The notes beneath the pieces were generated by a model, which was not told the DNA's origin, did not search any database, and saw only the letters and a list, made by a program, of their open reading frames with translations. From Marsupella aquatica (taxonomy: Eukaryota > Plantae > Marchantiophyta): a stretch of 64,000 nucleotides of DNA. The stretch covers positions 26,993,233 to 27,057,232 of the forward strand of contig OZ316892.1 of the NCBI GenBank assembly GCA_973895155.1. Direction: 5' to 3'. Of this stretch, positions 17,431 through 55,802 are shown piece by piece; the stretch's first letter is position 1; every line of letters starts with the position of its first letter. Made by a program: the position numbers and the translations under genes.

Positions 17431-17443
17431 AGTAGGGGTGATA
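17431..17443 (+). promoter_or_regulatory. Polypurine tract
   Basis: AGTAGGGGTGATA directly before the TGTC start of the 3' LTR. Confidence 0.65.
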
Positions 17444-20533: not shown

Positions 20534-20959
20534 ATGGGTCGTAGATATGAGTCTGCACCAAAGGTTTTGCCCTGTTCAATTTCGAAGCCAATTTTTGAGG
20601 GTGTGAATGCCTTCTTAGTTCCAAATGAATTTTCAAGAGCTCATTTTGAAGTTTTCCATAGAAAGCTAATTGAACGTCATGGTCAGCTTTGCACTGTTGC
20701 TTCCAGCAACACCACTCACATTGTTGCTGGTTCTTGGAGAGCAGTCATGTCCGAGTGGACATGGTCTGGTGTTAATTCCCTCATTCAAGAGCAGGCATTG
20801 AAAGTTGTCTAATTTGAATGGATGTGCGAATCCCTCAAAGAAGGAGTCCTACCGGAAGAAGGCCCTTTCAACTTAATGTTGACTGAGGTAGAGTCTGAGG
20901 TAGATTGTGCTAAGAGAAAAGTAGAACAGATTGAACAGGATAAGGCAGGTTCAGTTTGA
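20534..20959 (+). pseudogene. Single BRCT-domain protein; TAA at 20810-20812
   Basis: IFEGVNAFL...TTHIVAG...LKVV*FEWMCESL. Homologous to the first BRCT of ORF 52556-53419. Confidence 0.8.
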
Positions 20960-21289
20960 AGAAGTATAAACTTGATCAAGCCAAAACGTAAATGTGTGTA
21001 GCTTACTGTAAATGTAACCTCTACTCAGTCTTGGAGCAATTTAATAAAGCGTTGCTTGCTGCAATTCTTTGCAAATCCGCTGTTTGGTTCTTGGAGCACT
21101 ATGTAGTTCCTTTGGTTTGTGTAGGTTTTTAAAGATTAGTTGCTTCTCTTTTTTGTGCAGGGACATTCTAGCGCAAGGCAGAAAGTGTGGAAGTTCTGGG
21201 TCCAAGCAAAGGTTGGCCCTTGTACCCTATTTGTTGTGGCCTTGTGATTTTGTTGGAGTGAGCACAATCTCAATCTAGGTGCACTAAAG

Positions 21290-21727
21290 ATGGTTGTGAC
21301 ATGCAGTGCATTGTCTGAGTACCATCAACAGAAGGGTGAGCGATTCCATGTGAAGATGATTCACAATGGGGTCGTGCCTACTGACTATGCTGTGACGTGG
21401 GGCTATCCAAGTCTGCCTTGCAACCATTATAGGAGGCTGAATACATCCCCACTAGTCCCAAACAGTATCCGTCTAGTTAAACGGACACTTGGGGTGTTGG
21501 ATGAGGACTGTGTCTTCCTGGAGGCTTGTCTCCATTGTCACACCCAGACATGTGATCGTTGTAGGGGAGGTCACTCAAACATAGTGCAGACTTTTGCACA
21601 GTACATGGCAAGAATGGCATGGGGCCGTTGCCTAGCATGGAATACTTGTCATTTCATCAATGATTGTGTCTGTGATGGGACACGTCCAGGTTCTGCCCGT
21701 GATGATGATGCACATTCAAGTTGTTGA
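21290..21727 (+). CDS. ~145-aa Cys/His-rich protein of unknown family (copy A)
   Basis: Open ORF; aligns with 37818-38264 and 55353-55802 (ACLHCHTQTCDRC). Confidence 0.72.
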   Translation: MVVTCSALSEYHQQKGERFHVKMIHNGVVPTDYAVTWGYPSLPCNHYRRLNTSPLVPNSIRLVKRTLGVLDEDCVFLEACLHCHTQTCDRCRGGHSNIVQTFAQYMARMAWGRCLAWNTCHFINDCVCDGTRPGSARDDDAHSSC

Positions 21728-21894
21728 CGTCTAATTTGCATTCCTCATATTGCAAGATGGATCAAAAGAGCCCACAGGGAAGTGATGCCCCTGGTGGAGG
21801 CTACTGGCTGTGATTGCTGGTGGACTGTTGCTCCTTCTGGTACATCACATGCCTGTCCCTATTTTTGAAGGTAATTTTGCAGATCTTGTTCAGC

Positions 21895-22590
21895 ATGGCA
21901 CACATCGCTCGTCAGTTGCTGGATCCAAGATTTGGGCATAGGGAGCACCTTTGTATGGATCCCCCTTGTTGTTTTGAATGTGACGAGGGAGGAACTGTTT
22001 TGTTCTGTGATGGCCCTTGTGGTCGCCATTTTCATTATATAGTTGATGGCCACAACCCTGATGAAGAAGATGGCCATGGACCTACATGTCAGCGCATTGT
22101 CATTTCCAGAGGTCATGATTGGGCTGCAGCTTGGCTCTGTGATCTCAGTCAGCAAAACAGAGGAAGATGTTTTGGTTGTGGGCTCCTTGGCAGAACCTTG
22201 AGACCCAGCACAGATGAGCCCCTTGTGGTCCAGTGTTCTCATGATGATTGCTACTCATTTTACCATGTGGGTTGCCTCCGGACACTTCTGCGATTGGGGG
22301 AAATGCCATTCACCCGCCATCGAGATAACCCTGATGCACATCCCGATGCTTTTATATGCCCACGACATTACTGTGAGGTCTGTAAGGAGTATCGGGAGGG
22401 CATTTGGGACTTTGTCCAATGTTGTAGATGCCCTCGTGCATGGTGTCGTGATGAAGGACCAACAGCAGACAGACACTTGAGGAGAGGGGTGAGGGGCCGA
22501 GACACCTGGGACATTGGATAGTGGCACATGATTTATTGTAATCGCCATGTCATTCTAGAGGGTTCTGATATCCCTAGTACCCATGACTAG
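21895..22590 (+). pseudogene. EDM2/NSD-type multi-PHD finger protein (copy A); TAG at 22519-22521 near the C-terminus
   Basis: CFECDEGG...CDGPCGRHFH; CFGCGLLG...QCSHDDCYSFYHVGCL; FICPRHYCEVC...QCCRCPRAW; IYCNRH after the stop. Confidence 0.85.
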
Positions 22591-22912
22591 ACACATCATG
22601 ACTGCTACAAATTCCATCTTACAAACTTCAACCTTTTTTGTAGTGGACCCATAAGACAACCTAAATTATATGAACTTAAGTATTTGGTTGAATGCTATGG
22701 ACTTAAGTATTTCGATGAATGAAAGGGACCTAAGTATTTGGTTGAACAAAATGGAATTTTGATGAATTGAAATGGACTACAATAGATTGAGTGTTCAGAT
22801 GACATTGTGAATGGTTGACTTGAGTCCTGATCTTTTTCCATGTCTATCCATTGTTGTATGACAGGTTCATCTACCTAATCCCTCTCCCTCACAGCCTGTA
22901 TAACTGTCCATC

Positions 22913-25900
22913 ATGGCACACCTAGGCATGAGCTCTGTCAGATTGGTAGAAAAGGGTGAGGAGGGAGGAAAGCCTGATATGCCAATCTGTGTCATGTCCT
23001 TCAAAGAAGGGCAGACTCTGGCAGATTTTTGTCTAAAATGTGTTGGTGCAGTAGAGTTTGACTTTGATTTTGGGGATGAGAGGTTGTCTGGTCGAGTCCG
23101 GCGCTTTTTAGAGAAGACTGTTGGGGTGACTGAACTTCAAGGGACAATTTACGTGATTGCAGAGTTACCCTCAATTGCCTTGCCTGCGGAGAGGGTCACT
23201 ATTGGTTCCTCTCATTCATCTGCTGCCATTGTGTCCAATGTGGCAGGCACGACTCTATTGTCTCAAGGACAAACACAAGGGGTGCCAGTACAGGCTATTG
23301 TACAGCCTGTCACGGGCTCCTTTGAGTCTCACCTCATATCTGAGGCTGCATCAAAGGCTTGGAATGATGAGTGGGTGGAGCTACAATCCTGGGTAAACCA
23401 GAAGGGCTTTGGTGAGCACAAGTGGAAAGTGCGGACGTGGGATGAGGGAGGGGAGTGTCAAGGTCATCTAGAATGCTTAGAGTGTAGGGAGACTTATGGG
23501 AATGCAGCCACTTCACAGGTGCTCAAGTCCATTGCAAATTGCTTTAGCAACTTCAAGACAAAGCACCTGACCAACCCTAAACACAAGGAGAACTGGTGTA
23601 AGCGAAGGGGTTTAGCTGGAGCTTTGGTGACGGCTGCTGACACTATACAGCAACCACTGTTTGATCATAGTATGCAAATAGGGGCTGGTGTGGAAATAGT
23701 GGGAAAGTTGAATGCAGAGGTAGGTGGGGTGGTAGAAGTGTTCTCTATCACACCATCTCCCACTGATCCAACATTTGCACAGAGGTCATTCCTGTCTAAG
23801 GTGAGATGTACAGTCTGTGGTGAGCTACATACTGACATGTGCCTTAAGAAATCCAATTTGGAACACAATTTAAGGCAACATCTTGTCAGTCGGGATCATA
23901 TGGATGCACTTGAGAACGTCGTCACCAGTACCCAGGCTGCACTGAGGGCAAGGAAGAAGGGGAGACCAAGGAAGCCTGATGCTCGTGATCTGTTTCCATC
24001 TCAAAATTCTATTATGAATTTCTTTAGAGAGGACAACTCTGCTGCAAGGAGCAGTTCAGGCAGAGGTGGGTTGTATTCCTCCATTGAGCCAAGTTTAAGT
24101 TTGCTTTGTTGGGGCTATGGGAGTCAGAGGTCAAGTGGACAGGGGATTCTATGGCTGTGAAGGGCATACTTGATGATCAAGAGGGAGGGAATGTCTGGGA
24201 CTGTGACCGTACCACCCGTGCTGAGGTTTTCAATATAACTAGCCAATTAGTTGTTGGTATACAGGATTGTTTTAGGCACAAGCAATGTCACAGGGTGTCC
24301 ATTAATGGAGGTGGTTTTCAAAACCTCACTTGCACTCTATGTGATTCTATAAAACGTGAAGATGATTTTCGTGGCAGGGTGCACAGGGAAGCGAAAGCAT
24401 TAGTGCAGAGAGGAGACAGGACTACACAGGGTGGGATGAGGTTGGCATACTTGACCAAAACCGAACTGAGGGAATAGGTTGGTAACCTCAACACTCGCTT
24501 TAGGAAACAGCGTTGGCTGTTGGCACAACAGGCTCAGAAAATTTGTGCCTTGAGTGTTAGGCGAAAGAAGCTAGAAGATTTATTAGGAGTAGCCCATGAT
24601 AGGAAAGATTTAAGACTGTTTCTGAGAAATATTGTGAATGGACATAGGCATGGTGCTTTTGGTGGCAAGGAAGGGTTGTGGGATTTCCTGACAGATGTAG
24701 CTAAGAACTTGCAGAGAGTTGCTAAGGGTTATCAATACAGTAAGAGAACCAAGGCCTTTTCCCAAGCCATGTTCTAGTTTGGAGGTAGACAAGTGGCTCA
24801 TTGTTTCCAGGAAGATCTAGGTGGTCCAGGTCTGAAGACCTTAAAATGTGATAGAGCAAAACTACCACCCTTTAGAGCTGGCATTCAAAAAGAGATATTC
24901 CAGGAGGTGTGCAGAGTACTATGTGCATCAAAGCAGTCACTTGGAATTTCAGGAGATGTACCAGTAATGTTTGCTGAGGATGAAACAAGGATAAAAGAGA
25001 GACCCAGGTTTGTGTTTTTGTCTCTATAGTAAATTAGCTTGTTCTTTTCAATGTGTTGGATGAGTTTGCACGTCATGAGCTGATGTCTGTATTGTATTGT
25101 GTGTAACAGATGGGAAGCTAAATATGACACCCTCATTGGTTTCTGTGGCCCCTTAGAGGAGCACACATGTTCTTTTGGCTTGGAAGTATTGGTTGGAGTA
25201 GGTACTGAAGGGTATGACAAGATTGTAAGTACTTTTGAGCAGTATGCCAAAGACATGTATGCTAGAGTAATCATTGTCAATCTTGAGCTGCATGCAAAGA
25301 TGCCTAAATTGGCATTGTGTGTTGTACCAACATGTAACAAGTTTAAAGCTCCCTGGGTAAGAGAGCATTGGGTGCAGCTAAAGTCCATGTGGGACACACA
25401 TTGTAGAGACAGTGTTGGTCCTTTGTTGGGCCATGCTAGTGATGGTGATGCTCATCGTAGGAAATTGATGATGGAAGATTATACTGCTATGAATGTTTCC
25501 TTTCCTAGGTACAGTGTAGGATGGGTTGGGTGGCAATACTCAGTGTCCATACTTTCGAATGGAGATTTATATGGTTTTGGAGACCAAGACCCACCTCACA
25601 ATGGCAAAAAGGCAATTAACCCATTAGACCGAGTGTTTGCTATGTTAGTCCTTGGTGATCAGCATGCATCTTTGTCAAATGTCACATCTGTTTATAACCA
25701 CTATGCAATTCATGAGCATGGTTTGCATTGGGATGATGTGAATAGGACAGATAGACAAAATTGGGCTGGCCCACAACGAATAGCTTCCAGGAGAGTGCAA
25801 GCCTGCCTGCAGCATATGTATGAGCAATGAGATGTTTGTCATGACAGAAGCTTTGGGACCATGATATACTTGGAGGTTTGTGCAGACTACATGGATATTT

Positions 25901-27513
25901 TCTTCTCTGTTAAGTATGACCTAAGAACCCGTGTTGTCTTGGCATCAAAGGTATCTTGGTTCTTCCGATTGTGGAGGCTATGGTTGAGGTATGGTGATCA
26001 TTCTGTGATAGGGAATGTTGGATCTATCACAGAGAAGAACGTGATTTTTGTGTAGGCTTTCCATGATATCAACATGTCTTGTCATTTTGTAGTATTGTTA
26101 ATCTGTGCCTTTTGGGACAAGTTCCCATATCTGCAAGTTCCATTTCACTTGCTGGGATCAGATTGTTGTGAGATATTTTTCAGCAAGGTAGGTGGCATGA
26201 GTGGCCATGAGAGAAATGATGACTTTGGATCTCTACTGGATAGTGCATAGTGCAGTGAGACTGAATCGACTAGCTGGATTAGAGTATGGACCAGAGGGAT
26301 TGAAGATACGTCGATCACATGATAAACAAGATCATGTTTGGGCAACTTTACATCCTCTGGATGAAGGAGAACAAGCTCCAAATTTATTTGATTACTCTGC
26401 AGTTCAGACTAATGATCTGGTTGTTGATGCTCTAAAGGAAGGTTTGGGGGAAGCAAAGGATTTGTTGTGCAAGTTGAACATGTCACCAAGGAGTTCTTTG
26501 CCAGCAGCGAAAAGACGATGGTGGGTTCATCCTTGGGAGGTGGAGGCAGAGACTTGGCCAGATACAAGTGTCATGAAAGAGGCTGTGTTATGTGATGATG
26601 CTGAAGACATAGTTGAGCATCGACCTACTGTAGGCCCTAGACCTGAGCCCCCAATTAGAGAGTTTCTAGAGTTTGATGATCCTGAAGAAGATCTCAATCG
26701 GATTGATTCATGGGACACTCTGGACAGTCATGATTGTATTGAGCCATTAACAGTTGATGATTGTGAGATTGAGGTGGACACTGACCCATTTTGTGAGATG
26801 GAAACACTAGGACATGAAGTAAGGCATGTCTTGGCTGGAGTTCAAGCAGACTTAACTGATGTACAGACACCCCGGTCAGTGGTGTCTACTGTAACTTATG
26901 AGGGAAGGACTATCTACAAGTCCACTCTTGTTAGTCAATTGTGCTGCAATCCTTTCATGTCAAAGGATCTAGGCTAACTAGGATAGCCCAGAAGACCTAT
27001 TACACTACTGGTAAGGAGAAGAAAAATGGTGACTCTGTGACTTGTTTGGTTGACATTGGTACTGATATAGCAGTTTTGTTTGAGTCTGCTGCAGAGGTTG
27101 GTCCTTCTACCAAATTATCCAAGTCAAAGAAGAGGAAGGGAAGAGATAAGGCGTCTACTGTTGTCAAGGCACTATCTGCAAAGAAGGAATATTGGTTGGG
27201 TAGGATTGAGTTTATGATACAGAAGAATGGCTCCCATTGGGTCAGACGTCAAAAAGCAATAGATCTGTTGGACAGGCCTGTACCTGCAGTTGGATAGAGT
27301 GGAAGTGTGTGCCGCTTGCAATGTAATTGGTACAAATCTATTGGTAACAACAAAACTTTGTTCACTTATGATGCAATGGATGGACAATGGATTGATATTG
27401 AGATGGTAATTTCAAATGTGAACTTGACTATGAAGTCTGGGGTAGTTGACAGAGTATGTACTAGATCCAAATGACTTGCAGGCTTTGACCACATACATTC
27501 AGAGTGTGAGTAA
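22913..27513 (+). pseudogene. P-element/THAP9-like DDE transposase with N-terminal C2H2-type fingers and AT-hook; several stops and frameshifts; intron 25008-25109
   Basis: Ordered motifs FAEDETRI (24970-24993), HASDG (~25432-25446), DPPHNGKKAINPL (from 25588), DRQN (25750), GSDCCEIFFSKVG (from 26155) match the P-superfamily pattern FDE / SD(G) / DxxHxxKxxRN / QDxxExxF. Confidence 0.75.
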
Positions 27514-29588
27514 ATTATGATATATACTTGACTATTGTTTATTGTAAGTAGTTTATTGTGTGTGTATGTGATGCATGTTTAGGGTTAGTGGGAGGGAGTA
27601 GAGTAGGGGATGGCGGATTGGAAAATTGAGATTTATGCTCAATCAGGGGTTCAATTCCCCTCCATCATGTGAACATCATCATGTTGGGAGCTTGTGAAGC
27701 AAGGTAGAGAACCAATGCCTTGAATAGGTAACCTATGGTGTTTGGTTACCTATTCATGGTATCTGGCACCCACCATGCTTCACTATTCAAGAGTGAGAAT
27801 TACAAGTTGTTAGATGATCGTGAATGCAATTTACAAGATATTCAGCTTCATAATCGAACTGCATCGAATGTATTGGAAATGCATATCAATTTACACAATT
27901 GGCTCTACACTATTGAGGTACTTTACTTTCCTTAATAGGCATTTTTTTAATCATCATAAACTTTACATAAAGTTTTATAGGGGTAAACAATTCAAAAAAT
28001 GGCCGCTTTTCAGAAAGTAAGGGAGTGATGAAAAAAAATTCACTTAAAAGTTAGGGGGTCCAGACCCTAAAACGTCGCACGTGATGTAGAGCCCTACATA
28101 CAGTGACCCCTCCGAGTATGGAATGCCCAAAATTGTTACATGATCACAATGAAAGAATATATTTGAGAAAAAATCTCAATACAAGTCAAACTAAAAATAA
28201 AATATTTTACAAATTGCAGGAAAATTCATGAAAAAATAATAAGAAATGCCCAAAATTGTTACATGGTCACAACAAAAAAACATCTTTTCATATGATGATC
28301 ATTTATGATGAGAGAAGCTTACGAGGTTATGCCCCTAGAGGTTGACCGGCACGAGTGTTTTGACACATGGGTGAGAAACAAACGTGAAATTACCGCCATT
28401 TGAGCTAGGCTAGCATGGACCGATATTACGGCCCTACGTCGCAACTGTAAACGGCAATAGACATTCACCTACTTCATAAAGATTGCAACAGAAGAACGCA
28501 TAGCTGAATGAAGGTTGCGTTTTAGAAAGCTCATTACCGGAACGAGAAAGTCTATAATGGCGGTAAGAAGCTCGGTTTTGGATTGGATGAATTCAGAATG
28601 ACGCACAGTTGAATAAAGATTACGATTTCTGGATGTGATTACGAGCATATATTAAAAAGCTCATTGGCGGGACAACAAAATGTATAATGGCGGTCAGAAG
28701 CTTGATGGTGAGTTGACGATTTTAGAGAACTATGTGCAAACAATCGCAATGGGGAATAGACCATTTTCTGCGCCATAGGGCGCCACTTTAAAGAATCTCA
28801 AGCCGTTGGTGGAATCCACAAGATTGCAGAATTTCATCTCCCTCACCTTTCCGAATGAAGGCACTTCTTCTGTCATTCACCAGCTCAACACTAGTAGAAA
28901 ATGGGGCCTTTTATGACTATGACACATATGACTTATGTGCTCAAATGACAAAATATGTAAATGACATAACATAAATGACATTGAAATGACTATCCAAAAT
29001 GACGGGGTGCAAAAAATGACTAATACTTACAATAGTGTCATTTAAACCAATGAGCCAAATGACTTTGACTGCTATAATGACAATAATCATGAGTTGTAGT
29101 CATTTTGGAAAGTCTTTGTGAATGACACAATTAACAAAAACTGTCATATCAGTGTTTCACATATGGGAAGTCATTTCAGACGACAGTGACTAATGACTAA
29201 TAAATCAAATATTAGTGTTTAAAAATGTTAGTAGTCATTTAAACCAAAAGTGATAAATGACATGATAAACAACATATGACTATTTTGAGGTTTATGGTTT
29301 GTATATATTTTAGGGTTTAGGGTATGATTAGTCATTCAAAATGTATGGTAGTATATATAAAGACTAGTGGCACTCACATATTAGATTTGAAATACATTTA
29401 GAGACCTAACAAGCCTTCTTTTGTTGTGAGTCACATCATTAAATTGATGTACAACTTAAAGGCTTGATAATCTCTAATAAGTATGTACATTTATATATAC
29501 TTGCACCCATTTATTACATCTTTCCTATATATGCCAAGGACTCCTGAAGTGTTTACATTCCTTAAGATGTATTCACATTTCACATGTT

Positions 29589-36856: not shown

Positions 36857-37486
36857 ATGGCACGGGCTGCTGCTGCCTGGCTGGATCCAAAGTTTGCCCA
36901 TAAAGAGCACCTTCGCATGGATCCCCCTTGTTGTTTTGAATGTGATGAGGGAGGTACTGTGTTGTTCTATGATGGGCCTTGCAGTCGTCATTTCCATTAC
37001 TTAGTTGATGGGCAGAATCCCGAGGAGCCTGATGGCCATGGGCCTGAGTGCACACGCATTGCCATTGCTTGTGGGCTGCTTGGCCGAATTTTGAATCCCA
37101 CTACAGATGAGCCCCTTATGGTCCAGTGTGCACAGGATGACTGCTATTCCTTTTATCATGTGGGTTGTCTACGGACTATACTGAAGGCGAGGGAGTTGCC
37201 TCTGATAGGGTACCCAGAGAACCCAATTGCACATCCCGCTGCTCTGATATGCCCAAGGCATTATTGTGATGTTTGCAAGGAGTATCGGGATGGCATCTGG
37301 GAATTTATCCAGTGCCGTAGGTGCCCTCGTGCATGGTGCAGGGATGAGGGACCAGAGGCAGACAAACACCTGAAGAGAGGGGTGAAGGGTAGAGAAATGT
37401 GGGATATTGGTCCATGGCGTATGGTGTACTGCAATCGCCATGTCATTCCAGAGGGTTCTGATGTGCCACCTCATGATTTCAAATAG
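36857..37486 (+). CDS. EDM2/NSD-type multi-PHD finger protein (copy B) with a 23-aa in-frame deletion relative to copy A
   Basis: Open 209-aa ORF, closely similar to 21895-22590; lacks SRGHDWAAAWLCDLSQQNRGRCF. Confidence 0.85.
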   Translation: MARAAAAWLDPKFAHKEHLRMDPPCCFECDEGGTVLFYDGPCSRHFHYLVDGQNPEEPDGHGPECTRIAIACGLLGRILNPTTDEPLMVQCAQDDCYSFYHVGCLRTILKARELPLIGYPENPIAHPAALICPRHYCDVCKEYRDGIWEFIQCRRCPRAWCRDEGPEADKHLKRGVKGREMWDIGPWRMVYCNRHVIPEGSDVPPHDFK

Positions 37487-43042: not shown

Positions 43043-43099
43043 ATGGTTTGAAGATATTGTACAGTCCGGTTTCATTTAGTTGGAAGTGGGATCATACTA

Positions 43100-43705
43100 A
43101 CATGGCATGCCATGGTCTAGCAGTGAATGCAGCGAATACCTCCATATGAGGAGGAACGAAATCAGAAGGTAGCAGCCAACAATAGAAAATTTAGGGAGAT
43201 ATTTGGATCAAATTTCAATTTCATGTGAGTATAATCTTGCATGTTGTTTTGAATGTGCAAAGATATGTTAACATTGCTCATCAGCAATATTAGTTGGTTT
43301 TTGGTACTTGTCATTCATGAATTGATATTCTCTGATGTAGACTGGGTGCAACACAGACCATAGGGGGCAAGAAGGAAATAAGTGCACGTCGAACTCCTAG
43401 AAGTGAGGTTACCACACAGAGGAGACAGAGTTCCAAACTATCAAGAATTGCCTCAGTGAGTATGGCAGAGTCTGGTGATGAGGGCTCTGAATCAGATTAT
43501 GACACTGATGCTGAGTACAGTGAAGATGAGAAACCAGAAAGTTCATCCAAGGTGAGATTCCTATTACATTTCACCAACATTATGAGGAAACTATAGACAT
43601 TGGTAGTGATTCTGTTTAATAACATTGGTTTTAACTTGATCTGGACAGGAACATCTGCAACCTCCATCTAAGAGCTTGGCAGATGCAAAAGAAACCCCTA
43701 CAAAG
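43100..43705 (+). pseudogene. 5' exons of CACTA-2 ORF2, cut by the CACTA-3 insertion
   Basis: PYEEERNQKVAANNRKFREIFG motif followed by short GT-AG exons (~43341-43551, from 43650) ending at the CACTA-3 TIR. Confidence 0.55.
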
Positions 43706-44472
43706 CACTAGTAGAAATCGGGGGGTATTTAGACCCCATTAAACGACTATTCAGTACCGTATAGGACTTGGAAACGACTGGGAAGGACTCTAGTCCTTTA
43801 TAGGATTGCGAGTCGTATGTTTTGTTACTATAATCAACTGAGTCCTTTATAGAACTGGTTTATAAGTCGTTTAATAGACTGGATTTTCAGTCTATTTTAG
43901 TCTTTGTGTGGGTAGCTTTGGTGAGTCGTTTTTAGTCTTTTATGGGCTGCGATGATGAGTCGTTGGGAACGACTAAAAAGGTTATGGAGGGTAGTCTTTA
44001 AATATACTTTGTGGGGTATGTATAAGTCTTTTATGTCAACTGGATATGAGTGATGAAGACCCCACTATACTACTTGGAATGAACTCACTCTATAAGTTCA
44101 CCATTCATCATGTTAACATTAGAATACATAGTTTCAGAAAGCCATCTTCTATACCATGTACACTAATATGAATTCACAGATTCAAACTTCATAGACTACA
44201 AAGAAGGTCACAAAGTATTCCTCTATACCATACACACTAATACTGAAATGATAAAATAGATTCAAGTATCATAGACAATCACCATAGAGCCATAGTTTGA
44301 CATCAATCACTTGTTTCATACATACAGAATTCAGAAATATCAATGTCACACACAACGTCTCCTTCATCCTCTTTACCAAATGGAAAAATTGGTACAGATA
44401 TTTCTTGGATCTTTCCAAGGCAATGTCAAAATGTGACACAATTCACATGATGCTATCTACACTTGCATTCAG

Positions 44473-47400
44473 TCACTGCAGACTAACACACTCTGATGGC
44501 CAGAGCACAAGAGATCCTACTGCATCTGCAATTATTTCCTGAGGTGGATCATCGTCTCTATTCGGAAATGGCAAATTACAATCAGATACAATCACTGTAG
44601 TCAACAACACTACTACATGGTCATCCGGGACCACTTTGCCATGGAATTTTGCATGATCCGGTCGCAAAATGCCTGTACCCACACATACCTGCGAGTCATC
44701 CTCCCATGATAGAAGATTATGGACTGGCTCTGCTGTGGCTATCACCTCCACCTTACCCTGGCTGTTTTTCTTGGCTTTCCTGGGTGGCTTATACATGATA
44801 TTATTCATACCTTGGTTGCGAGTCATGACTTTGGCACGAGTGTTTTGTGCTGGTGATCGAGAATTGGCTACACTCTTCTTCAAAGAATCTGCATCCATAT
44901 TTGACACTTCTGATTGTGTAGCAGGATTTCCCTGCGACATCATCTCAGTATCTGCCAACATTGTACTTGCTTCAATTGAAGCATCTACAATCTTACTTGC
45001 ATCCAATGTTGCTCCCAAGTTTCGACGTCGCTTCACCCTACTCCCACTTGGTTGAGAGTCTGTCAACTCTGCATCAACTACAATTCAGTGTCATGTCCAA
45101 CATAAGTCAATCACTCATCACATGTGCTAAATGTACATGTCACCAACCACAAAGTTGTCACTATCTCCTTACCATTATGAACAGCCTTCTTCCCCTTCTT
45201 TGCCATTGCCATATGCTCCATGTCTGCTTCTGTTGATCAATAAACACACCACAATATTCAGGTTGAATCTATTAACCACTAAATTGTTGCTCAACATTCA
45301 TATAGAGGAATTTAAAGCATCAGCTTACCTGATACCTCCTTGGCTATGGTCACTGAGGCACTGGGCACATCTTCTTCATTATTGCTCTTTGAATCACCTG
45401 ATACATCAATCATGATGTCACTTCAGATCCCAGTTCATCCAACCAGTTCTTACAGAAAAGATTACCTCCAACCGGCTTAAGCTTCACAAAACTCCATGCA
45501 CTTTTCAAATGTAATGTATTGGATCATAGCAGGTTACCTGTCTCAGCAACCTTCTTGCCCTTCTGCTTACTGATTACAGGGTCCTTCTCTGCCTCCACTC
45601 TTCCTGCATTCAAACCATTCACTCAATTCATGAAAACTTACTTCTAACATTTGAACATAGGACACAATGAACAATGGGCCGGTGTCATTTCCATACCTGT
45701 GTCAGATTTGCCAATTCCCTTTTTTGTTAACAAGGGCACACTTTGTACAATGTTGCCCTCATTGTTTGGTTGGGAACCACCCAATTTTTCAATCACAAGC
45801 TTGAAATTAGATTCCACTGATGCAAGAAGGTTCGCTACAAATGCCTCCACAATATCCAAACGATCAGCCAATTTACTTTCCACTCGAGGGAGTCCACACT
45901 CTAATGACTTCAACCGTTCACACATCTCTGTGAGAGTTGTAACAGTTCCCTGTCATAACACAGCTTACATATCTCAGATAACTGTCCCCAAGAACTGGTT
46001 GCTTACTTCCTACTACATTTCTTTCTGATGCTCAAGGCCAAATAGTCACAGAACATACAGAATTACAACATAATCACCTGTTTGGAAGTTACACTTGTCA
46101 CCTCACTCCTTTGTTTCATGAACTCCTCTCTCACTTCTTGTGCTGATGGTTCTTCACCTGTCAATTTCTTCTGCAGTCCACATCAACATACATATGAATG
46201 AAACCAAGTGTTGATTGTCAATGAAAATGTAATAATGGTAGCAAGATGATAAGTTTGAGGCTTACTATCAGGCATGTCACTGCCTTACCAATTGTTCTTT
46301 CACTGGAGCATAACTTCCTCTCCCAGCCTGTGAAAGGTGTTTCACTTTGCCTCGAGCATTTGACATCAGTTCACTCTTGCTCTGTCCAGCCTCCGACATG
46401 AACCCTTTGATTAACCGTGTCCATTGATCCAGTTCCAATGATGGGGGTGGTGGCATTCTCCTGTTAGAACCATTGTCTATCCACATCCTTTTCAACCTAT
46501 GCCTCTCTTGTTTCAAAATCCTCATTGCATAATCTGATATGCAATCTTCAACTGGGCCCTTACCATCATTACCAACATACTCCCACCGTTCAAGAATGTC
46601 CTTGCAGATAGCAGCCCAATCAGCTTTGTTCTGACTCCTAAACTCTGTAATGCTCAAATCTAACCAACGCAATACTTCTCCTCTTAGGTCAGAATGCCAA
46701 CGGTTCTTACCATCACATGTGGGAGTTATCCAACCTTCGGAATTCACTTCTACTTTACCAAATTTGTTACTGTCTCCTGCCTTGGTACTCCCTGAAGCGC
46801 TACTAGGTGTCCCTCCACGGCCTGGTGTCCCCCCACGGCCTGGGGTCCCTCCACGGCCTGATCTCCCCCCACGGCCTGGATTGCATTGTCCAAACCTCCC
46901 TGGAGTCCCTGCACATTTACAGGATCCATTTACAGTCACTTACATTAGGTAAGTATGAATCATAAATCCCGCTGCCAAATATACAGTGGACTTCAGAGCA
47001 ATTCTGCAATGACCAAGTTACCTCTCCCTTGGCGCATAGATGGTTCTGGACCACCTGTCCTATTGCTTTGTCTTGATGAATTAGGGGCGTTTCTCCCGCC
47101 TGTGAATGATTGCCTCCTATCTGAACGTGGATGGCCTTTGTTGTTTTCGTGATTGTCCCAATCAGAGTCTGCATACCAACAGGTACATGCCACACTCATG
47201 GACCTGTAAGATAAACTCTTTGCCCTAGCTACACATCAGATAAGTGCATATTGAGCTAAATCTCTACTACCATCACAAAATCACTAGCACAAGGCACTTA
47301 CTTGTCCAATCATCCTCCTCACCTTTCCATTGCCCTCTGTACCCGTCTCTACCACGCTCTGGGTGTTCATATTCATCCCATCCATCTTCTGCTCCATCAT

Positions 47401-47644
47401 AGTCATCATCATAATTATCAGGCGTCCCTTGCCAATAACTCTGGCTCCTTCTAGGGTATGGATTATGTGATTTCTCTCTAGCTGCCCACCTACCTGGGAC
47501 TTGATGAGGGCCCTGTGCATCTTGCACAGGTGCATTTTTCTGTGAGCCCCCTGCATCTGGGTCTCCATCCATATCCAATCTTTCCTCTTCACCCCACTCT
47601 CCAAGCCCCATGTCTGTCTCCATGTCATCACCCTCTTCCCCCAT
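44473..47644 (-). CDS. tnpA: CACTA-3 TnpA/TNP1-like multi-exon gene (Transposase_24-like core, RGG repeats, TNP1 C-terminal-like domain); intactness not verified
   Basis: QWTRLIKGFMSEAGQSKSELMSNARGKVKHLSQAGRGSYA (46277-46939), GRGGTP 18-bp repeats (~46805-46880), FHGKVVPDDHVVV...LPFP...DAVGSLVLWP (44473-45066); many GT-AG junctions. Confidence 0.78.
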
Positions 47645-47821
47645 AGCTTCTGCACAGCACCCACAACCAAACAGGGAGAATCAGCACACTAAATTCAAAG
47701 TATCAATCAATTTCATGCATATCCAACTATCCTAAACATCATTCCAGGCAGCAATTCCCGTTATGTGACTCTGTGCAGGTAGTCATCCTCAACCTCATAC
47801 TTGCCAATCGCCAGCTGTTGC

Positions 47822-50800
47822 CTATTGCAAATCATCAACCTCATCATATTCCATTTGCCCAGGTTCATCATATGTCTCTCTCAATGTTAAGGGGATGTAG
47901 TCAGTCCCTGCCCGAGTTGGAAGTACAGTCTCATGACTAGGATGCTCGAATGCAGCATGGTCATCCAAACTGAACTCTACTTTACTTCCATCCATCCGCC
48001 TGTTCCGTGCTTGGCTATGGCATACCACCCTCTAGCCATGTGACTCCTCCACATCTGCAAAGAAAGCCTGTTCAACTTGGCTAGGGAAAACAAAAGGCTC
48101 AGACCATTCTGGTACTCTGGACCTAAAATTGGCCAACAAGAACCCATCATGATCACGCTTCATGGTGGCCCTTGGTCTCTGCCACTCTGATTTCACCCAT
48201 GATCCCTTCATCAATATCACTGGGACACTTGTGTTACCATAATTCAACACCCAAATGTCGGTCAACTCCCCCACGTAACCCATCTTCATCCACCCCCTCT
48301 ATTCTTCAGAGGTTCTCTGCTCAAACACAGAAATCAAACCACAATCATATGATACACAATGGTCACCCTGCTCATCCCTCACTAGATAATGATTTCCATA
48401 AGCTCTCATCCGTTTGTAGGTCAGAATAGACAATCGTGGTGGCACAGATAGAAGATACAAATCCTTCTCCATATCTGGGTGATGTCTACTATGCTCTCGA
48501 ATTGTCACCCGAATCCACTGCTCGAACTGTGGGAAGGGATCCTGCTGCCCAGAGTGTGCAGCTTTTTGCATATCATATTCCCTGCATTATGAGGTACAGG
48601 CATAGTTAGGTCTAAACAACACATGACAACCTAAGATCACCCTTGGAACAGACAAGAAGCATCACAACAAAGGCAAGTCAATTCAATCACTCACCTCCAC
48701 CATGGTTGCATAGGCTCTGTGTTTGCCAGCACATATGAATGAGCCTTGTCTCGAATCGCAACAGGCAGCTGAACAGCACGTCCCACACCTTCAACAACCT
48801 CGCCACTCACTCCATCATCTTCACCAGATTTCCAAACTCTTGTCATAGCTTCACCAGACCCAGCCATGTACTCTGTTAGGAATCCCAACGTCTCATCCTT
48901 AATGTACCCCAATGCCATGGAAGCCTCTGGCCTGTAGTATGTTCTCACATGACCTTTCAACAACTTCATGTATCGCTCCATAGGGTACATCCATCTGGTA
49001 CTGACTGGCCCATACTGCCCTAGCTCTTCTACCACATGGATTAGGAGATGAGTCATAACATCAAAGAAAGCAGGGGGGAAGTATATCTCCAAGTCACAGA
49101 GGACATAAGCAGCATCCTGCTTCAACTGCTCCAATCCTTGGGGATCCCACACTTTCACACATATACGGCGAAATACATTGCACAGTCGAAGAATGACATT
49201 ACGGACTGGTTTCTGCATGAGACCTCTGAGGCATAGGGGCAGAATGTGCTGCATCAACACATGGTAGTCATATGTTTTCATACTGCCAAGTTTATTCTTT
49301 GTAATATGCTTCTTGAAGGCACCAGCATAGCCAGAGGGCACTTTCAGACAGCTCAATCTATACAAGAATGTCTTCCATTCATCCTGTGTGCACACATAGG
49401 GAGCTTGGAACTTGAGAAGTACATTGGGATTGCTTGCATGGGGCTTCAACCAAAGGTGAGGGCGAATCCCCTTCTGTTGCATATCAGCTCGAACTGCTCC
49501 TGTATCTTTCTCACCCGACAAGAACTTCAGCAAGCTCTCACAAATATTTTTCTCAATGTGCATGACGTCCACATTGTGTTTGCTGGGCTCGAATTCCTGC
49601 ACTCCACAAAGCAAAGAATTCAACAACAGAAACACTAATTAACCACATAGGAGGATTGTAACCAACATCAATCCACCATTGCTCCAATCTAAAATTGCAA
49701 TCATACAGGGGCTGGAGGCTAAGTACATTACCCTCCAGTACTCCAACTCCAAGTCCATCAAGGTCTGTCTTTTCACACCGTGTTTCACCACTGGATCCTC
49801 AGGTTCTCGATCAGTGGCACTTCTCTTGTCCCAATCAGCCTTCCTGGCTGCCCACCTCAGGACTTGCTCTCTGGTGACCCTCTGTGGTGGGCCACGAAGC
49901 TCTGTTTTGTTGTTGAAGTGTGCAATTTGAGACCGTGTGTGCCTGTAAGGATGATCAACAGGCAGATACCTTCTATGCCCCTGAAATTTCATACTGTGCA
50001 GGGCATGCGACCACTCACTTGTCACATTTTTCCCACATGGTGTGCACCCCACATAGCCCTTTGTCACTCGTCCAGATATGATGCCATGGCCTGGGTAATC
50101 TGCTATATCCAGCAAACAAATTGCATGCAGTCTAAAGGGGCTGGGTCGAAGAAGCCCCTTCAGAACATCATGGGTTAACACCCCTTCTATCCACAAAGTC
50201 TTCCACTCTTCCACTGCTGGAGCCAACATGATATCTATGAATTGCTCGGTCACAGAAGCTGGTCCAGGGATTAACAGCACCATCATGACAAAAAACCTCT
50301 TTGTAGTCATCCATGGGGGAAGGTTGTAATTTAGCAGCGTAACCGGCCAACATGAATAACGGTTGTTTTTGTCTCCAAATGGGTTTACTCCATCCAGTGA
50401 TAGACCAAATCGAAAGTTCCGCTTCTCTGCAGCAAACTGTGGCCACCTCTCATCAACAAATTTCCAATGGTTGGAATCTCCAATGTGACGCTACAGGCCA
50501 TCACTGCTCTTGTTATCAGGAGTCCATGTCATCAGCTTGGAAATGGCAGGGCATCTAAACAGACGTTGTAGTCTAGGAATGAGAGGAAAATGACGAAGAA
50601 CCTTGGCAGGGTGTGTACATTTCCCTACATTCTTGTACCTGTGCTTACCACAATGAGGGCATGTCAATTTATCTGCAGGCTCTTTGCGAAAGAGAACACA
50701 CCCATCAGGGCATGCGTCAATAGACACATAGTTCAGCCCAAGGTTAGACATCAATTTCCTAGCCTCGTACATATTTTTTGGAATTGAATTACCATCTGGT

Positions 50801-51519
50801 AACACATTTCGGTGCAGGAAGGTCAACAACTCTGTCACAAATATATTGGGAACATTGTGATTGCCACAGATGTTCAACAACACGACAAAACCCAGCTTGG
50901 AGCAGTTCGACCCCTCGTAGATAGGAATGCAAGCTTCTTTGATGTGTTTTGGGCCCCCAAACACCCACTCCCTCTCTGCTGCACCTTCCCCAATGTCAAA
51001 GTCAGGTTGAGCTTGGCCGTCGCCAATGTGTGGCTGTGGTTCATTGTCCTCTTCTGATTCCACTGTGTCGTAAAAAGCATCAAGGTCTTCAAAAATCTCT
51101 TGAACCATTCTTGGGACATCCATCCCACCGTCCTTAGTGACTGCCTCTGCATCTCCATCTTGGTCATCCACGTTCTCATGTTGGACCCCAGGACCATCCT
51201 CTGCACAGTCTATGTCCTGCTCTACGTAGTCTCTACGCCTAGCTGTATTAGAATCCACAAAGTCAGCTCTCCACTCTTCATCAGAGGAGTCTTCTTCTGC
51301 TGGTACATTCCAAACCCTCCACCGAGGGTGCCTTTCATGCCGCAGCAGGTGAAGGTGCACAGTGTTCAAACTCAACGACTTGAATCCTTGGCACTATGTG
51401 CATGGGCATCTCATCCTCCTACTCCTACCTTGGGCGGCCCGGGCTTGTTCACGCATCCACAATTTAGAATCATGATGCCTAATCCTAAATGGGTTGTGAA
51501 GAGGCAACCTTGGAGCCAT
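47822..51519 (-). pseudogene. tnpD: CACTA-3 TnpD-like transposase with introns, stops and frameshifts
   Basis: Motifs MRCPCT*CQG, IDACPDGCVLF, DIADYPGHG, VDVMHIEKN, MKTYDYH, FFDVMTHLLIH, WMYPMERY, MKGSW. N-terminus (EDSSDEEWR) shared with the CACTA-2 transposase. Confidence 0.93.
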
Positions 51520-51845
51520 CACTATACACACGCACTCAGCACCCTGTCATTTTATTATGCAAGTGAAAAATACACTTCCTGTTAAGGATTTCACCCCCGA
51601 CTGTACTTGCCAAAATACGTAACGTTCCAAAAAAACAAAAAAACAAAAAATATAGGTGCCTGAGTCATGTACCTATTCTCAAGTGAATGAGACAAAATTC
51701 CTAAATGTTTGAGGGTGTCAACTCCTCCGCTGTCCTCACATGTACTGCCTCTGCACGTACATCCATGACCATATCAGAGTCCAATCATGTATAGTCATAG
51801 ACACAGGTGCCAGGTGCGAGACCGGTGTGAGATGTCCTCATCTTA

Positions 51846-52415
51846 CTACCACATCAAATACGGATACCAATCCTGTTGTCGATGCCACTCAGCCCTGAGG
51901 TACTCAGGCATGTACATTAAGTCATCAAGGTCTAAACCCTGCTCATGCCATGGTGGTCTTTGATCCGTGCCTACAAGCAGTGGCAGCAGTGCCCTCCATG
52001 GTGCACATGTTGCTACCAAGTCCCTCCACTGGGTACTAATTAGTCTATATTTGCAGATATCTTGTGCGCCAGACACCACAAGAACCCTCGGCCAGACATG
52101 TGTAAGAACTATATCATCTGCCAAATCAGGCAACAAGGAACCACCTACAGCATCGTGCTTGTCTAACTCATCTGCTGAAAAGTAAATGTCCTCTTCCGAC
52201 TGTGCATGCTCATTCACCACAGCATTCACAACACATCCAAGGTCTGCAGGCATTATCTCGGATGGAGCTACACTCTGTCTGGTTACCAATCCACACAAGT
52301 AAGCCCAAGCAGTAGCCATGCACGATGCAACCCGTAGGAGGACCCTACATAGGGCCTGACGGTCTGGAAGAGGCAGCATACCCACCAAAGTCTTCAGCCA
52401 AACAGAGCCCAGCAA
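51846..52415 (-). CDS. F-box-like small protein (ATG probably at 52319)
   Basis: LLPDLADDIVLTHVWPRV...KYRLISTQWRDLV fits the plant F-box consensus; no substrate-binding repeats follow. Confidence 0.62.
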   Translation of the reverse strand: MLGSVWLKTLVGMLPLPDRQALCRVLLRVASCMATAWAYLCGLVTRQSVAPSEIMPADLGCVVNAVVNEHAQSEEDIYFSADELDKHDAVGGSLLPDLADDIVLTHVWPRVLVVSGAQDICKYRLISTQWRDLVATCAPWRALLPLLVGTDQRPPWHEQGLDLDDLMYMPEYLRAEWHRQQDWYPYLMW

Positions 52416-52555
52416 GTAGATTCACAGTCACACCCCACGCAGCAGGAAACAACAATCACTTCAACTGCGACCAACCATGACAAGATGAGTTAGTTCAAGG
52501 ATCACATTTATTACAAAATTGTGTTTTATACAAAAATATGAGGGACTCCTACTCC

Positions 52556-53419
52556 TCACTCTCTCCCACCTTTGCTAAGCATACATCTCCGCTGAATCTT
52601 GGAGGGCCAGGCCTCAAAAATATCAAAGTCCCAAGCATTCTGTCGCTTCCCTCTAGCTGCTGATTCCAGAAGCCAATCAGGGGAAAGCACCCAAAGATTG
52701 TTGTTCATGACAAAATCACGCACTGTTGTCTTAAAGAATTTTCTGCATATTTTCATGTATGACAGACCTACAACATGAGTGGAGGTTTCTGTTAGACTCT
52801 CCTCCACTGTCCCACCTAGCTCAACAACTATAGACTTGTACAGTCTGCACTTAGTCTCCCCAATTCCTTCTTCTGCAAATACCACACTGAACCCCTTCAT
52901 AATGGTATTTCTCTCCTTGCCATGCTCATTCAATATAGCATCTGCACGCATAGGATGGTGTCCTATGTTGACAACAGGTCCATATTGGACAGAAGCAAAG
53001 TTGGGTTTCTCTGCCGCTGCTTCATAGGCTTCCTTTTCAGCCAAAGCCTCTGTAGTGGCCTCCTCACTCTCCCACAACTCATATTGCTCAGTACTCTGTA
53101 CACACCTATGTTTAACAGAATCGGTCAGCCAAGAGACTTCAACTACTTTTAGACCTTGGTTGGTAATGGCAGAATCAATGAAGGACCATGACCACTTGTT
53201 CGTCACATCCAGCCATGTCCCCGCAACAACATGTGTAGTCTGTGGAGTGATGTCCTTGACTTCAGTCCCATGGAACTCTGAGAATCGTTTTTGTACGATT
53301 GGCCAACTCACTTGGGTGAACCCATAGTGGCCAGGAATCAAAATGGCTTTGATTCCAGCCAACAGAGGCGGGTGGTCAACCTTTGTACGTTTCCTAGAGG
53401 CCATGTACACACGGGCCAC
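52556..53419 (-). CDS. Tandem two-BRCT-domain protein
   Basis: Intact 287-aa ORF with TTHVVAG...LKVVEVSWLTDS and ELGGTVEESLTETSTHVVG...VLSPDWLLES. Confidence 0.88.
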   Translation of the reverse strand: MARVYMASRKRTKVDHPPLLAGIKAILIPGHYGFTQVSWPIVQKRFSEFHGTEVKDITPQTTHVVAGTWLDVTNKWSWSFIDSAITNQGLKVVEVSWLTDSVKHRCVQSTEQYELWESEEATTEALAEKEAYEAAAEKPNFASVQYGPVVNIGHHPMRADAILNEHGKERNTIMKGFSVVFAEEGIGETKCRLYKSIVVELGGTVEESLTETSTHVVGLSYMKICRKFFKTTVRDFVMNNNLWVLSPDWLLESAARGKRQNAWDFDIFEAWPSKIQRRCMLSKGGRE

Positions 53420-54002
53420 CTAATCACTGCAGACCGGAAGATAATGCGTTCACCTGATAATCGGAGGGCCCTTAAAATGCTGCATTTATAACTTGGTCCA
53501 GTCCAGTCGTCTGGTGAGTCTCTGCTCCGATTCCAAACGGGAGAAATATTGGGACAAACGTACTAGACACCTGCAAGCATGCACCTCATAGTTTGAATAT
53601 GTGCCTTCACAATATTGAAGGTGACAAGTGCAATTGTTTTGTGATGCCACATACAGATGTTGTAAATGGGCAGACATTCAATGAGAATACAAAATGTTGG
53701 TACACTTTAAGGGAATTCTCGCAAATTAAATAGCCTTGTAACTTATATGCTCATAATGAGAAGTCCTGATTTAATTTAAGCAGTGTCATGTAAGTCATGA
53801 TCAAAATGATTGCAGAGTTAAAAAAGTTCCTAGAAGGCTTAAGGGCAGTTTTTGAAGGCATGTACCCAGGAACAAGTAATGAACTTAGGGTACTTGTTGC
53901 CTAAGCATCCTCTCCTACAGAGGTCCTTCTTCTCAAAATTGGAATGTCTGCAATCTCCAAGGTATCCACATCAGGTGCACTATGCATGTATATTATTCAG
54001 GT

Positions 54003-54683
54003 TCAAAGCCAAGAAATGTGATCTCTCATGGGAGTGTGCAAAGTAGGATCTATGGCATGGCGATGACAATAGAAGATCCATCGATCAACACCATGTGCAG
54101 AGTGATCATAGATGTGTCTGTCACAAGCATAGCCTTCTACTTGACGCTCCTTCAAACAATGAAAGTGCCACATGGTGGGACACCTAACACAGTGGACTAT
54201 GTCCACCCAGAAATCTTCATCGTGCTGACCACATGCCTTGCACTTATGAAGTGGGCAAGCTGTGGCAAGATCGGGCAAACATGAAAAACAAAAGAACCTC
54301 ACACAATATCTGTCAGGGCATTTCCTAACAAGTGGTGGAGCATCAACAGAGCCCTCATAAGACCCCAACTTCCCACACTGTGCACACTTAGCCTGCTTCT
54401 CCAAACAATCAGTGCACATCCAGCCTCCCTGGTGTGCTGACGGGAGGCCCACCCTTGGACAGTTGTTTTCTGCAGCAAGGTCAGACTCCGGGTTGAGGTG
54501 GAAATGCCTCATGCAAGGGCCCTCACATATGGCTAAGCCACCACCATCGTCACAAATGGCACAACAATGAGCTGCCTTCTGGAAAATCTGACTTGCGGAG
54601 AAGTTACTACCATCTGGCCCAACTACACCTGTGTTGCTCACCTCTGTCCCCCGCTTCTTGGCTCGGATTTTAGGGCGTGCCAT
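54003..54683 (-). CDS. EDM2/NSD-type multi-PHD finger protein (copy C), intact, with N-terminal basic patch
   Basis: CAICDDGGGLAICEGPCMRHFH...WMCTDC...CAQCGKLGS...CPDRYCVRFF...CPLHKCKAC...CVRCPTMWHFHCL...IFYCHRHAID. Confidence 0.9.
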   Translation of the reverse strand: MARPKIRAKKRGTEVSNTGVVGPDGSNFSASQIFQKAAHCCAICDDGGGLAICEGPCMRHFHLNPESDLAAENNCPRVGLPSAHQGGWMCTDCLEKQAKCAQCGKLGSYEGSVDAPPLVRKCPDRYCVRFFCFSCLPDLATACPLHKCKACGQHDEDFWVDIVHCVRCPTMWHFHCLKERQVEGYACDRHIYDHSAHGVDRWIFYCHRHAIDPTLHTPMRDHISWL

Positions 54684-55352
54684 GCCTACGCATGAGACAG
54701 ATAGTACAATTTAGCAGAGTGCACGGACAATACAATTTAGTGCAGTGTACAAAAAGTACAGTGTAGCATATAGACTAGAGTGGCAATTGCTACTGCAATG
54801 AAATGTTCACACACATGTGCAGAGTAGACATACTTTTTGGTTTGTTGAGCCCACACTAAAAACTGATCCCCTCGTACAATAGCTCCACCTACACCTCAAT
54901 TTTGTGGCTATGATTCACCAAAGGAGATCTGCAACAAGATTTAATGCATTTGAATCACATATAACAGTCGTGACATGTAAAACAGGCATTTTTTGAACAG
55001 GATTGGTATCAAGCATTGTGATCAGGGTTGTAATTTATACATCCTAAATAGGCTATGATAGTGAATGAGACAAATAAGTTAGGCAGAAATCACTTTTTCC
55101 AGGTTATCACATGGCCCATTAATTCCAGTCTTTGAAAGGAGACTTTTAAGTGAGCTTGCTAGCCTCTTAAATTAGGATATTGTACTTAGTGCAGCCATAA
55201 TAGGATAAGTTATGTACTGTTGACCCTAAACCCTGGACCCAAAATTGGTCATAATTCAAAATCTTAAGTAAATATCCTCTCTGTTCAAGTCAAAGTGTTA
55301 AGTTATAGGTCAATGGTCTCTGGTTTGTGCATGCGGTGTGACAAGTGGTCCT

Positions 55353-55802
55353 CTAGAGCGTGTGATCCAAACATGTGTAGACACCAAAGTGACCGGTGGT
55401 GGGGTCTGGGAGGGCAGGACAAGTGACATCGCCAGGCACACTGCAGGATGGTGAGTGGTTCCAGATGATACATTGTGCTCTGTGAAAAAACCGACATCCA
55501 AGAGAACGGTCATCCAACTCTAGGCCAGAAGCCCTACAGGCAGGACAGTCATATTGGCAACTGTGCACACACCCTTGGGCCCTAATTTGTGGCGGGTCAT
55601 GTATGAGAGACAGAAATACCAAGGATGTTGGGAAGGGTGGAGAAGCAGGTATAGGCCGGCTGTAGTTGTTCCTGGCAACAACTGGGTACTCAAAGTACCA
55701 TGCAGACTGGGCTGGAAGGATCCCAAGTCTGACATACTCAAGGCGCAACATCTCTGCCTTGCGTGCAAGCCGCACATGTTCAGCATTGCGGGTCCTCACC
55801 AT
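55353..55802 (-). CDS. ~149-aa Cys/His-rich protein of unknown family (copy C)
   Basis: MVRT...KAEMLRL...GCVHSCQYDCPAC...RAQCIIWNH; homologous to copies A and B. Confidence 0.75.
   Translation of the reverse strand: MVRTRNAEHVRLARKAEMLRLEYVRLGILPAQSAWYFEYPVVARNNYSRPIPASPPFPTSLVFLSLIHDPPQIRAQGCVHSCQYDCPACRASGLELDDRSLGCRFFHRAQCIIWNHSPSCSVPGDVTCPALPDPTTGHFGVYTCLDHTL

Follow-up and report, generated by a model that had tools for sequence, protein, structure and literature searches.

The window analysed here, a stretch of 64,000 nucleotides from contig OZ316892.1 of Marsupella aquatica, is repeat-dense eukaryotic DNA in which a Gypsy element with a nested CACTA element (CACTA-1), a P-type DNA transposon, CACTA-2 and CACTA-3 follow one another in this order. 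The P-type element and the two latter CACTA elements each possess, upstream of the transposase gene, an EDM2-derived gene for two and a half PHD fingers (PHD) and a gene for a small Cys/His protein (CH), so that PHD and CH are found together in all three elements, and BRCT genes are present in two of them (P-type and CACTA-3). The PHD genes, CH genes and BRCT repeats each number exactly three in a six-frame hidden Markov model scan of the whole window. In an all-against-all comparison of 11 window proteins, the copies were homologous for CH (pairs at E 4e-18 to 2e-7), for PHD (E 2e-112 to 1e-20) and for BRCT1 and BRCT3 (E 2e-15). The genes are separated by intergenic gaps of 167-992 bp and occur in three different orders, namely BRCT-CH-PHD-transposase in the P-type element, PHD-CH-transposase in CACTA-2 and CH-PHD-2xBRCT-F-box-transposase in CACTA-3. 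A first-pass annotation had proposed three such elements with accessory genes co-oriented with the transposase and shuffled in order, and this was borne out by open reading frames (ORFs) at or adjoining the positions it named; most of its coordinates stand, and for BRCT3 (ATG at 53404) and the F-box-like ORF (ATG at 52379) it had given frame starts. The features of the three elements are as follows.

18716..28338, + strand: P-type DNA transposon; its left side abuts the Gypsy 3' long terminal repeat (LTR), a candidate right end lies near 28338 and read depth falls at 28426
20534..20959, + strand: BRCT1, gene for one BRCT, interrupted by a premature TAA (20810)
21290..21727, + strand: CH1, CxH-x5-CxxC protein of 145 amino acids (aa)
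21895..22590, + strand: PHD1, EDM2-type 2.5-PHD gene interrupted by a premature TAG (22519); 22 of 26 ligand columns
22913..27400 (3' end approximate), + strand: P-type transposase; Cys/His fingers at the N-terminus, intron near 25009-25110, coding sequence broken by several stops and frameshifts
28889..28906, + strand: CACTA-2 left terminus, CACTAGTAGAAA; subterminal repeats and a tandem array of 408-bp units (30410-33875) come after it
36857..37486, + strand: PHD2, sister of PHD1, shortened by an in-frame deletion of 69 nt; 19 of 26 ligand columns
37818..38264, + strand: CH2, 148 aa
39257..43042, + strand: CACTA-2 transposase (Transpos_assoc, Transposase_21, DUF4218, DUF4216), with stops
43336..43705, + strand: probable CACTA-2 second gene, no Pfam match, split by the CACTA-3 insertion; loose end at 43705 in sequencing run X5
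43706..43723, - strand: CACTA-3 3' terminus, CACTAGTAGAAA on the + strand
44476..47680, - strand: exons of the CACTA-3 second gene, TnpA-like, weak Transposase_24 match (E 0.014)
47950..51519 (3' end approximate), - strand: CACTA-3 transposase, with stops
51846..52379, - strand: F-box-like ORF, 177 aa, under the Pfam threshold
52556..53404, - strand: BRCT3, tandem 2xBRCT gene, 282 aa, intact
54003..54683, - strand: PHD3, EDM2-type 2.5-PHD gene, 226 aa, intact; 25 of 26 ligand columns
55353..55802, - strand: CH3, 149 aa, intact

Both CACTA transposases match the Pfam families Transposase_21, DUF4218 and DUF4216, which identifies the elements as CACTA/EnSpm. One terminus of each was located, at 28889 for CACTA-2 and at 43706 for CACTA-3; at the latter position CACTA-3, lying on the minus strand, interrupts what is probably the second gene of CACTA-2. 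Searches of the window did not reveal the partner ends. The P-type transposase had no direct match in Pfam or the PDB, and its assignment is based on neighbours in the atlas, at 0.92-0.95, in which 17-25% of members contain PF21787 and 15% PF21788, together with a D..D..D(2)H..E pattern that we take to be the P signature. The sharing of the genes across two superfamilies, as claimed by the first-pass annotation, is supported. Elements of the P superfamily have terminal inverted repeats and a target-site duplication of 7-8 bp. A complete terminal-repeat pair with target-site duplication was not found within the window for the P-type element, CACTA-2 or CACTA-3, and terminal-repeat searches gave no left partner for the candidate right end of the P-type element. 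Positions 28326-28338 at this candidate end have an 11-bp motif in common with 59309-59321, with no further similarity, which is only a hint. All three transposases contain stops. No report of P elements in land plants was found in a literature search whose scope excluded Repbase and subscription papers.

Origin and conservation of the accessory genes

The window PHD proteins match the NSD-type Pfam families PF22908, PF23004 and PF23011 and have weak PDB sequence matches to AIRE and NSD2. In a profile search of long proteins, 68 of 3430 candidates were homologous and EDM2-like; 19 are named EDM2 or EDM2-like and none NSD, and the top named homologues, from Sphagnum, Marchantia and Riccia, are 33-35% identical. 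Such best named matches indicate a land plant, probably of an early-diverging lineage. The alignment to these host proteins spans the whole cassette of 2.5 atypical PHD fingers and the C-terminal motif YC..H..P.RDHI that follows it. A search for proteins of similar length gave 8 relatives among 1422 candidates, all unnamed and of 128-247 aa. When the 11 stand-alone PHDs were placed in a tree with 25 host proteins chosen from the 68 (36 rows), they fell on one side of a branch and the host rows on the other (support 99/97; 94 in the Shimodaira-Hasegawa-like approximate likelihood ratio test with four long or partial rows removed), and PHD1 and PHD2 were sisters at 99/94, far from PHD3. As judged from homology, the PHD genes are derived from EDM2, as the first-pass annotation had proposed.

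The PHD ORFs (209-231 aa) end right after the cassette; the methyltransferase-like (ELP) domain and the other domains of EDM2 (PMC7529245) are absent, and all EDM2 sequence outside the cassette has been lost in the stand-alone PHDs. Among 26 Cys/His columns conserved in the hosts, PHD3 keeps 25, PHD1 22 and PHD2 19, the last with an additional C>Y change, and seven full-length PHDs from outside the window keep 23-25. The earlier description of diverged copies with retained ligands does not fit PHD1 and PHD2, which have lost ligands and are close to each other (73% aa identity, 77-80% nucleotide identity). The nucleotide similarity of this pair is restricted to the coding region, and over 206 codons the rate of synonymous substitution (dS) is 0.94, that of nonsynonymous substitution (dN) 0.16 and their ratio 0.17 (bootstrap 0.10-0.26), not near 1. 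From these rates it is evident that the PHD reader gene has been under purifying selection. The best fold matches of the predicted PHD structure are histone-binding PZP and NSD PHD domains, although these are weak (E 4e-4 at best), and a complex prediction for PHD3 with CH3, computed without the use of alignments, gave no verdict either way, at a score of 0.00. In metagenome contigs a PHD profile gave 133 pattern matches, one of which, on contig L001 of 2.7 kb, is a relative. This contig was rejected as a transposon: the ORF at its positions 1310-2629 (+ strand) is long and acidic, has an EDM2-type PHD at its end and is part of a host EDM2-like gene. Scans of viral and prokaryote collections gave no relatives (0/48, 0/62, 0/44 and 0/35).

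In the case of CH, 15 distinct members were found outside the window (three in one search and 14 in the other, with two in common), all of 132-200 aa and 17-56% identical to CH3, and the second search, made without a length limit, revealed no fused form. The four residues of CxH-x5-CxxC are invariant in 18 of 18 CH proteins and are likely to form a zinc site. None of the 18 reached a Pfam cut-off (best E 0.035), the best PDB sequence match was at E 0.74 and no atlas match was obtained. The CH model (predicted local distance difference test 76, predicted template-modelling score 0.74) consists of a helix, three strands and a helix and gave no Foldseek match at E 0.001 or better and a VIA Z of 3.9 at best. 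CH can be regarded as a stand-alone family new to the libraries searched, in agreement with the novel Cys/His protein of the first annotation; such null matches do not prove a new fold. A host parent gene for CH was not found in the family searches.

The first annotation's BRCT assignments hold fully for BRCT3, with two stretches matching PF00533 at E 7e-14 and a profile match to the BRCA1 BRCT at E 6e-7, and in part for BRCT1, which carries its premature stop and, when read through it, reaches Pfam E 0.0015, just under the cut-off. For the proposed F-box the ORF gives a weak match, of 13.3-13.7 bits (E 0.06-0.08) against a gathering cut-off of 20.5. The dN/dS values for CH and BRCT pairs were saturated or too wide to use.

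These data bear on the possibility that the genes are passive cargo of the Pack type, pieces of host genes from which the element gains nothing. The copies in the window are decayed, the elements differ in which genes they contain and in what order, and CACTA-3 also holds a piece of an RPL18A gene, all of which would suit such cargo. However, neutral cargo is expected at a dN/dS near 1 and in close identity to a host parent, whereas PHD1 and PHD2 have the low ratio given above, proteins with no more than 20-50% identity still have their ORFs and ligands, identity between the PHDs and any host EDM2 found is about 30%, and CH is without a host parent in the searches made. This explanation is very unlikely and, for PHD, largely refuted; the comparisons indicate that the accessory gene feature is real and selected, with stronger support than the first-pass annotation could give it.

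Placement in the elements and probable exchange between superfamilies

Six public runs contain 19-49% of the words of 36000-43100, and four of these related runs (four studies, three organism labels) were compared over 18000-30000 and 43000-62900. In X3 and X5 an internally deleted form of the P-type element has a joint between 19498 and 27468, and thus BRCT1, CH1 and PHD1 lie within that element. For CACTA-3, two joints in X3 (49146 to 55364 and 55910 to 50754) tie the CH3 region to the transposase, and X5 contains the empty site at 43705, the CACTA-3 insertion point. Contig depth does not equal copy number and is taken only as consistent with multi-copy families: in X5 it is 65 for the CH1 contig and 73-99 for the main P-type transposase contigs, and it is high across 43664-56279 in four of four runs and then drops (in X5, 278-1554 versus 9-62 over 56280-59599). 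The accessory genes of the P-type element and of CACTA-3 reside inside their elements. Two of the P-type transposase stops read CAG at full depth in all four related runs, so that this damage is private to the window copy, and related runs also contain P-type transposase copies lacking some of the window stops and frameshifts. At least six read variants in the CACTA-3 accessory genes (two synonymous, four not) were not used. Among the outside homologues, the CH1-type protein P0015 and the PHD1-type protein P0099 are each encoded on a contig of 2152 bp, which hints that the two may be linked there.

Alternatively, the three loci could belong to a recently duplicated host gene cluster with transposons adjacent by chance, or to domesticated host genes. 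Such an origin would fit with the lack of a complete terminus pair and target-site duplication in the window for the three elements and with the unseen context of the outside homologues; against it, synonymous sites are saturated or nearly so in most pairs, the flanks are unrelated, and the deletion derivatives, like the flat depth, show the genes to belong to the elements. We consider it extremely unlikely. Of the outcomes that the first-pass annotation named as refuting its reading, neither a dN/dS near 1 nor a single recently duplicated host region was observed.

The history of PHD is not that of CH. CH2 shares 19-28% identity with CH1 and 29-31% with CH3, and for each CH there are closer relatives outside the window, at 54-57%. 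As PHD1 and PHD2 are sisters while their CH genes are far apart, PHD crossed superfamilies without its CH neighbour. The comparisons indicate that PHD has been common to the superfamilies more recently than CH, it was likely swapped between the P-type and CACTA superfamilies, and the accessory genes appear to move singly through a shared pool and not as a fixed cassette; the portable module moving as a unit that had been suggested earlier does not agree with these histories. EDM2 was probably captured once, long ago, and elements residing together and nested in one another would then have exchanged individual genes passively. The transfer most likely ran from a P-type element to CACTA-2, which would have acquired the PHD upstream of its CH and lost the PHD that it had before; this would also account for the reversed gene order of CACTA-2.

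The remaining features of the window are listed below.

LTRs at 1-357 and about 17439-18715: Gypsy element, host to the nested CACTA-1
1053-11900: CACTA-1, complete element with termini and the 3-bp target-site duplication CAT; two genes, divergent
6016..6843, - strand: SET-domain exon in CACTA-1 (PF00856, E 5.7e-6), between the first and second transposase exons

The Gypsy 3' LTR contains, at 17586-17938, an 18-bp tandem array and 59-bp repeats. With its SET exon, which is perhaps an alternative splice product, CACTA-1 is the fourth element in the window with chromatin cargo. Its TTTGCGA/TCGCAAA repeats (1156-1478, 8831-8899 and 10216-10367) resemble the motif CCVTCGCAAA of Arabidopsis Spm1 TnpA. 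The left arm of CACTA-2 has a hairpin repeat resembling a miniature inverted-repeat transposable element, at 29716-30108, and about nine units in the 408-bp array. A joint in X3 across 56035-59853 marks a later insertion in the CACTA-3 5' region; the inserted DNA (56036-59852) has lower depth, includes the 11-bp motif at 59309-59321 that also occurs at the candidate P-type right end, and contains a 176-aa ORF (56599-56069) of no clear family. The RPL18A piece (59958-60323, + strand; PF01775, E 1.4e-17) lies in the probable CACTA-3 5' region and has high depth in related runs. As a neutral control it was set aside for want of a host reference.

Proposed function and its alternatives

The PHD fingers of EDM2 bind H3K9me2, and the complex with ASI1 and AIPP1 (AAE) favours read-through of intronic heterochromatin (PMC7472560, PMC5364540, PMC7529245). 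We propose tentatively, with a little less than even confidence, that the transposon PHD is a reader-only EDM2 mimic which would keep the element transcribed within H3K9me2 chromatin. Because one kind of PHD accompanies transposases that are not related to each other, its target is likely to be host chromatin and not the transposase. The protein would bind the element's own H3K9me2-type chromatin and would act as a decoy or a recruiter, either competing with the host ASI1-AIPP1-EDM2 machinery or recruiting it. CH may be a zinc-binding adaptor working with PHD, and the BRCT proteins may dock phosphorylated DNA-damage proteins at the excision break.

Several observations weigh against this proposal or the steps leading to it. 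Long branches meet at the split between stand-alone and host PHDs, a situation of which the tree tool warns, and a single capture from EDM2 is for this reason likely only. The placement of PHD2 and CH2 in CACTA-2 is deduced from one terminus and the gene order, and for the outside homologues, 15 of CH and 8 of PHD, the surrounding DNA was seen in no case. Acidic residues before the first PHD cysteine number 0-2 in 11 of 11 stand-alone PHDs versus three or more in 24 of 25 hosts, and with the loss of this acidic stretch the mark specificity may differ from that of EDM2. The accessory genes in all three elements are CpG-depleted (observed/expected 0.19-0.38) and the elements carry stop codons, so that any anti-silencing failed to protect these window copies. 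Finally, EDM2 represses Mu1 and promotes COPIA4 (PMC3632883); it is thus not an anti-silencing factor only, and a mimic could act either way.

A different role would be integration targeting, with PHD reading heterochromatin marks and tethering the transpososome via CH, leading to insertion into gene-poor repeats. Chromodomains of chromoviruses target new copies to gene-poor repeat regions in this manner. The nested structure of the window (CACTA-3 within CACTA-2 and CACTA-1 within the Gypsy element) and a cargo that is a reader without a catalytic part would be in keeping with targeting. Nested insertions are, however, frequent in any repeat-rich region, PHD and the transposase are encoded separately and are not fused, and the close PHD pair serves two unrelated transposases and would require separate interfaces. 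Integration targeting is unlikely.

It is likewise rather improbable that PHD is no longer a histone reader, having become a DNA-binding or protein scaffold with CH and BRCT for excision and repair, or a self-limiting repressor. The loss of the N-terminal acidic patch, the long branch and altered C-terminal ligands of the PHD1/PHD2 clade, and the BRCT genes in two of three elements would suit a scaffold, and the repression of a DNA transposon by EDM2 (PMC3632883) would suit a repressor. On the other hand, both PHD clades keep the EDM2 cassette in full, with the PHD1 strand C..CDxGG.L..CDGPC, and the weak best fold matches (E 4e-4) are to histone-binding domains.

An extension of the EDM2-mimic proposal, that early-diverging land plants harbour a cross-superfamily pool of transposon counter-defence genes in which a stolen reader-only EDM2 and a zinc protein of new fold would hijack the heterochromatin read-through complex, with BRCT, F-box and SET as optional members and with the pool reaching a P-type lineage, is doubtful in its entirety. 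Should the EDM2-mimic proposal itself be true, the elements would provide compact natural tools for probing EDM2, together with a new family of zinc proteins.

Comparison with known systems

The first-pass annotation did not recognise its idea as described, and in this it was mistaken, as cross-superfamily chromatin-enzyme genes are published for fungal TET/JBP and oomycete SET (PMC12730594). The concept is precedented by these and by VANC. For the EDM2-type PHD cargo no report was found in the literature searched, Repbase and subscription papers being outside that search. No PHD, BRCT, F-box or EDM2 is mentioned in the main text of an atlas of Arabidopsis transposon products (PMC13547354), and no PHD in the accessible part of a survey that covered 962 protein models of Spm (bioRxiv 10.64898/2026.08.24.746577), whose supplements could list such domains.

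The host EDM2 and EDM2-like proteins of the AAE complex have the same cassette of 2.5 atypical PHD fingers and the same conserved motif after it. They are 470-1655 aa long versus about 220 aa for the stand-alone PHDs, which are transposon-encoded, about 30% identical to EDM2 and without ELP, other domains or the acidic patch. Pack-CACTA and Pack-MULE capture (PMC13317346) offers a plausible route for the first capture and for exchange between adjacent elements; unlike such cargo, the genes described here are whole ORFs in transposase-encoding elements, long diverged from the host gene and apparently under purifying selection.

Chromatin domains in other DNA transposons include the SET domains in Phytophthora HarbingerS and MuDR elements cited by PMC12730594 and the VANC, Rehavkus PHD and SET-bearing Mutator-like elements listed in PMC6446971. 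The Phytophthora SET and Rehavkus PHD domains, to which the SET exon of CACTA-1 is a parallel, belong to other hosts and superfamilies, and the Rehavkus PHD is fused to the transposase (PMC12730594, PMC6446971).

VANC of VANDAL elements and TnpA of Spm are accessory factors countering silencing (PMC6446971; bioRxiv 10.64898/2026.08.24.746577), and the role proposed for PHD would be analogous. Both are sequence-specific DNA binders, TnpA deriving from transposase, whereas PHD comes from a host histone reader, and the CACTA elements described here retain a separate TnpA-like gene besides the PHD cargo. If the proposal is true, a host-derived histone reader traded between unrelated transposons would be a strategy different from the lineage-tied, DNA-binding VANC and TnpA.

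The closest parallel is given by the TET/JBP genes found in 11 fungal DNA-transposon lineages and passively transferred between superfamilies (Kojima 2025, PMC12730594). As here, a chromatin-related accessory gene is common to several DNA-transposon superfamilies and passed on passively, its function is inferred, and one reported pair of about 80% identity lacks any signature at its ends, much like PHD1 and PHD2. The fungal cargo is a DNA-modifying enzyme, whereas in the present plant elements it is a predicted histone reader with a new Cys/His protein and BRCT, and a P-type element is involved. The elements described here would extend the fungal TET/JBP pattern to plants.

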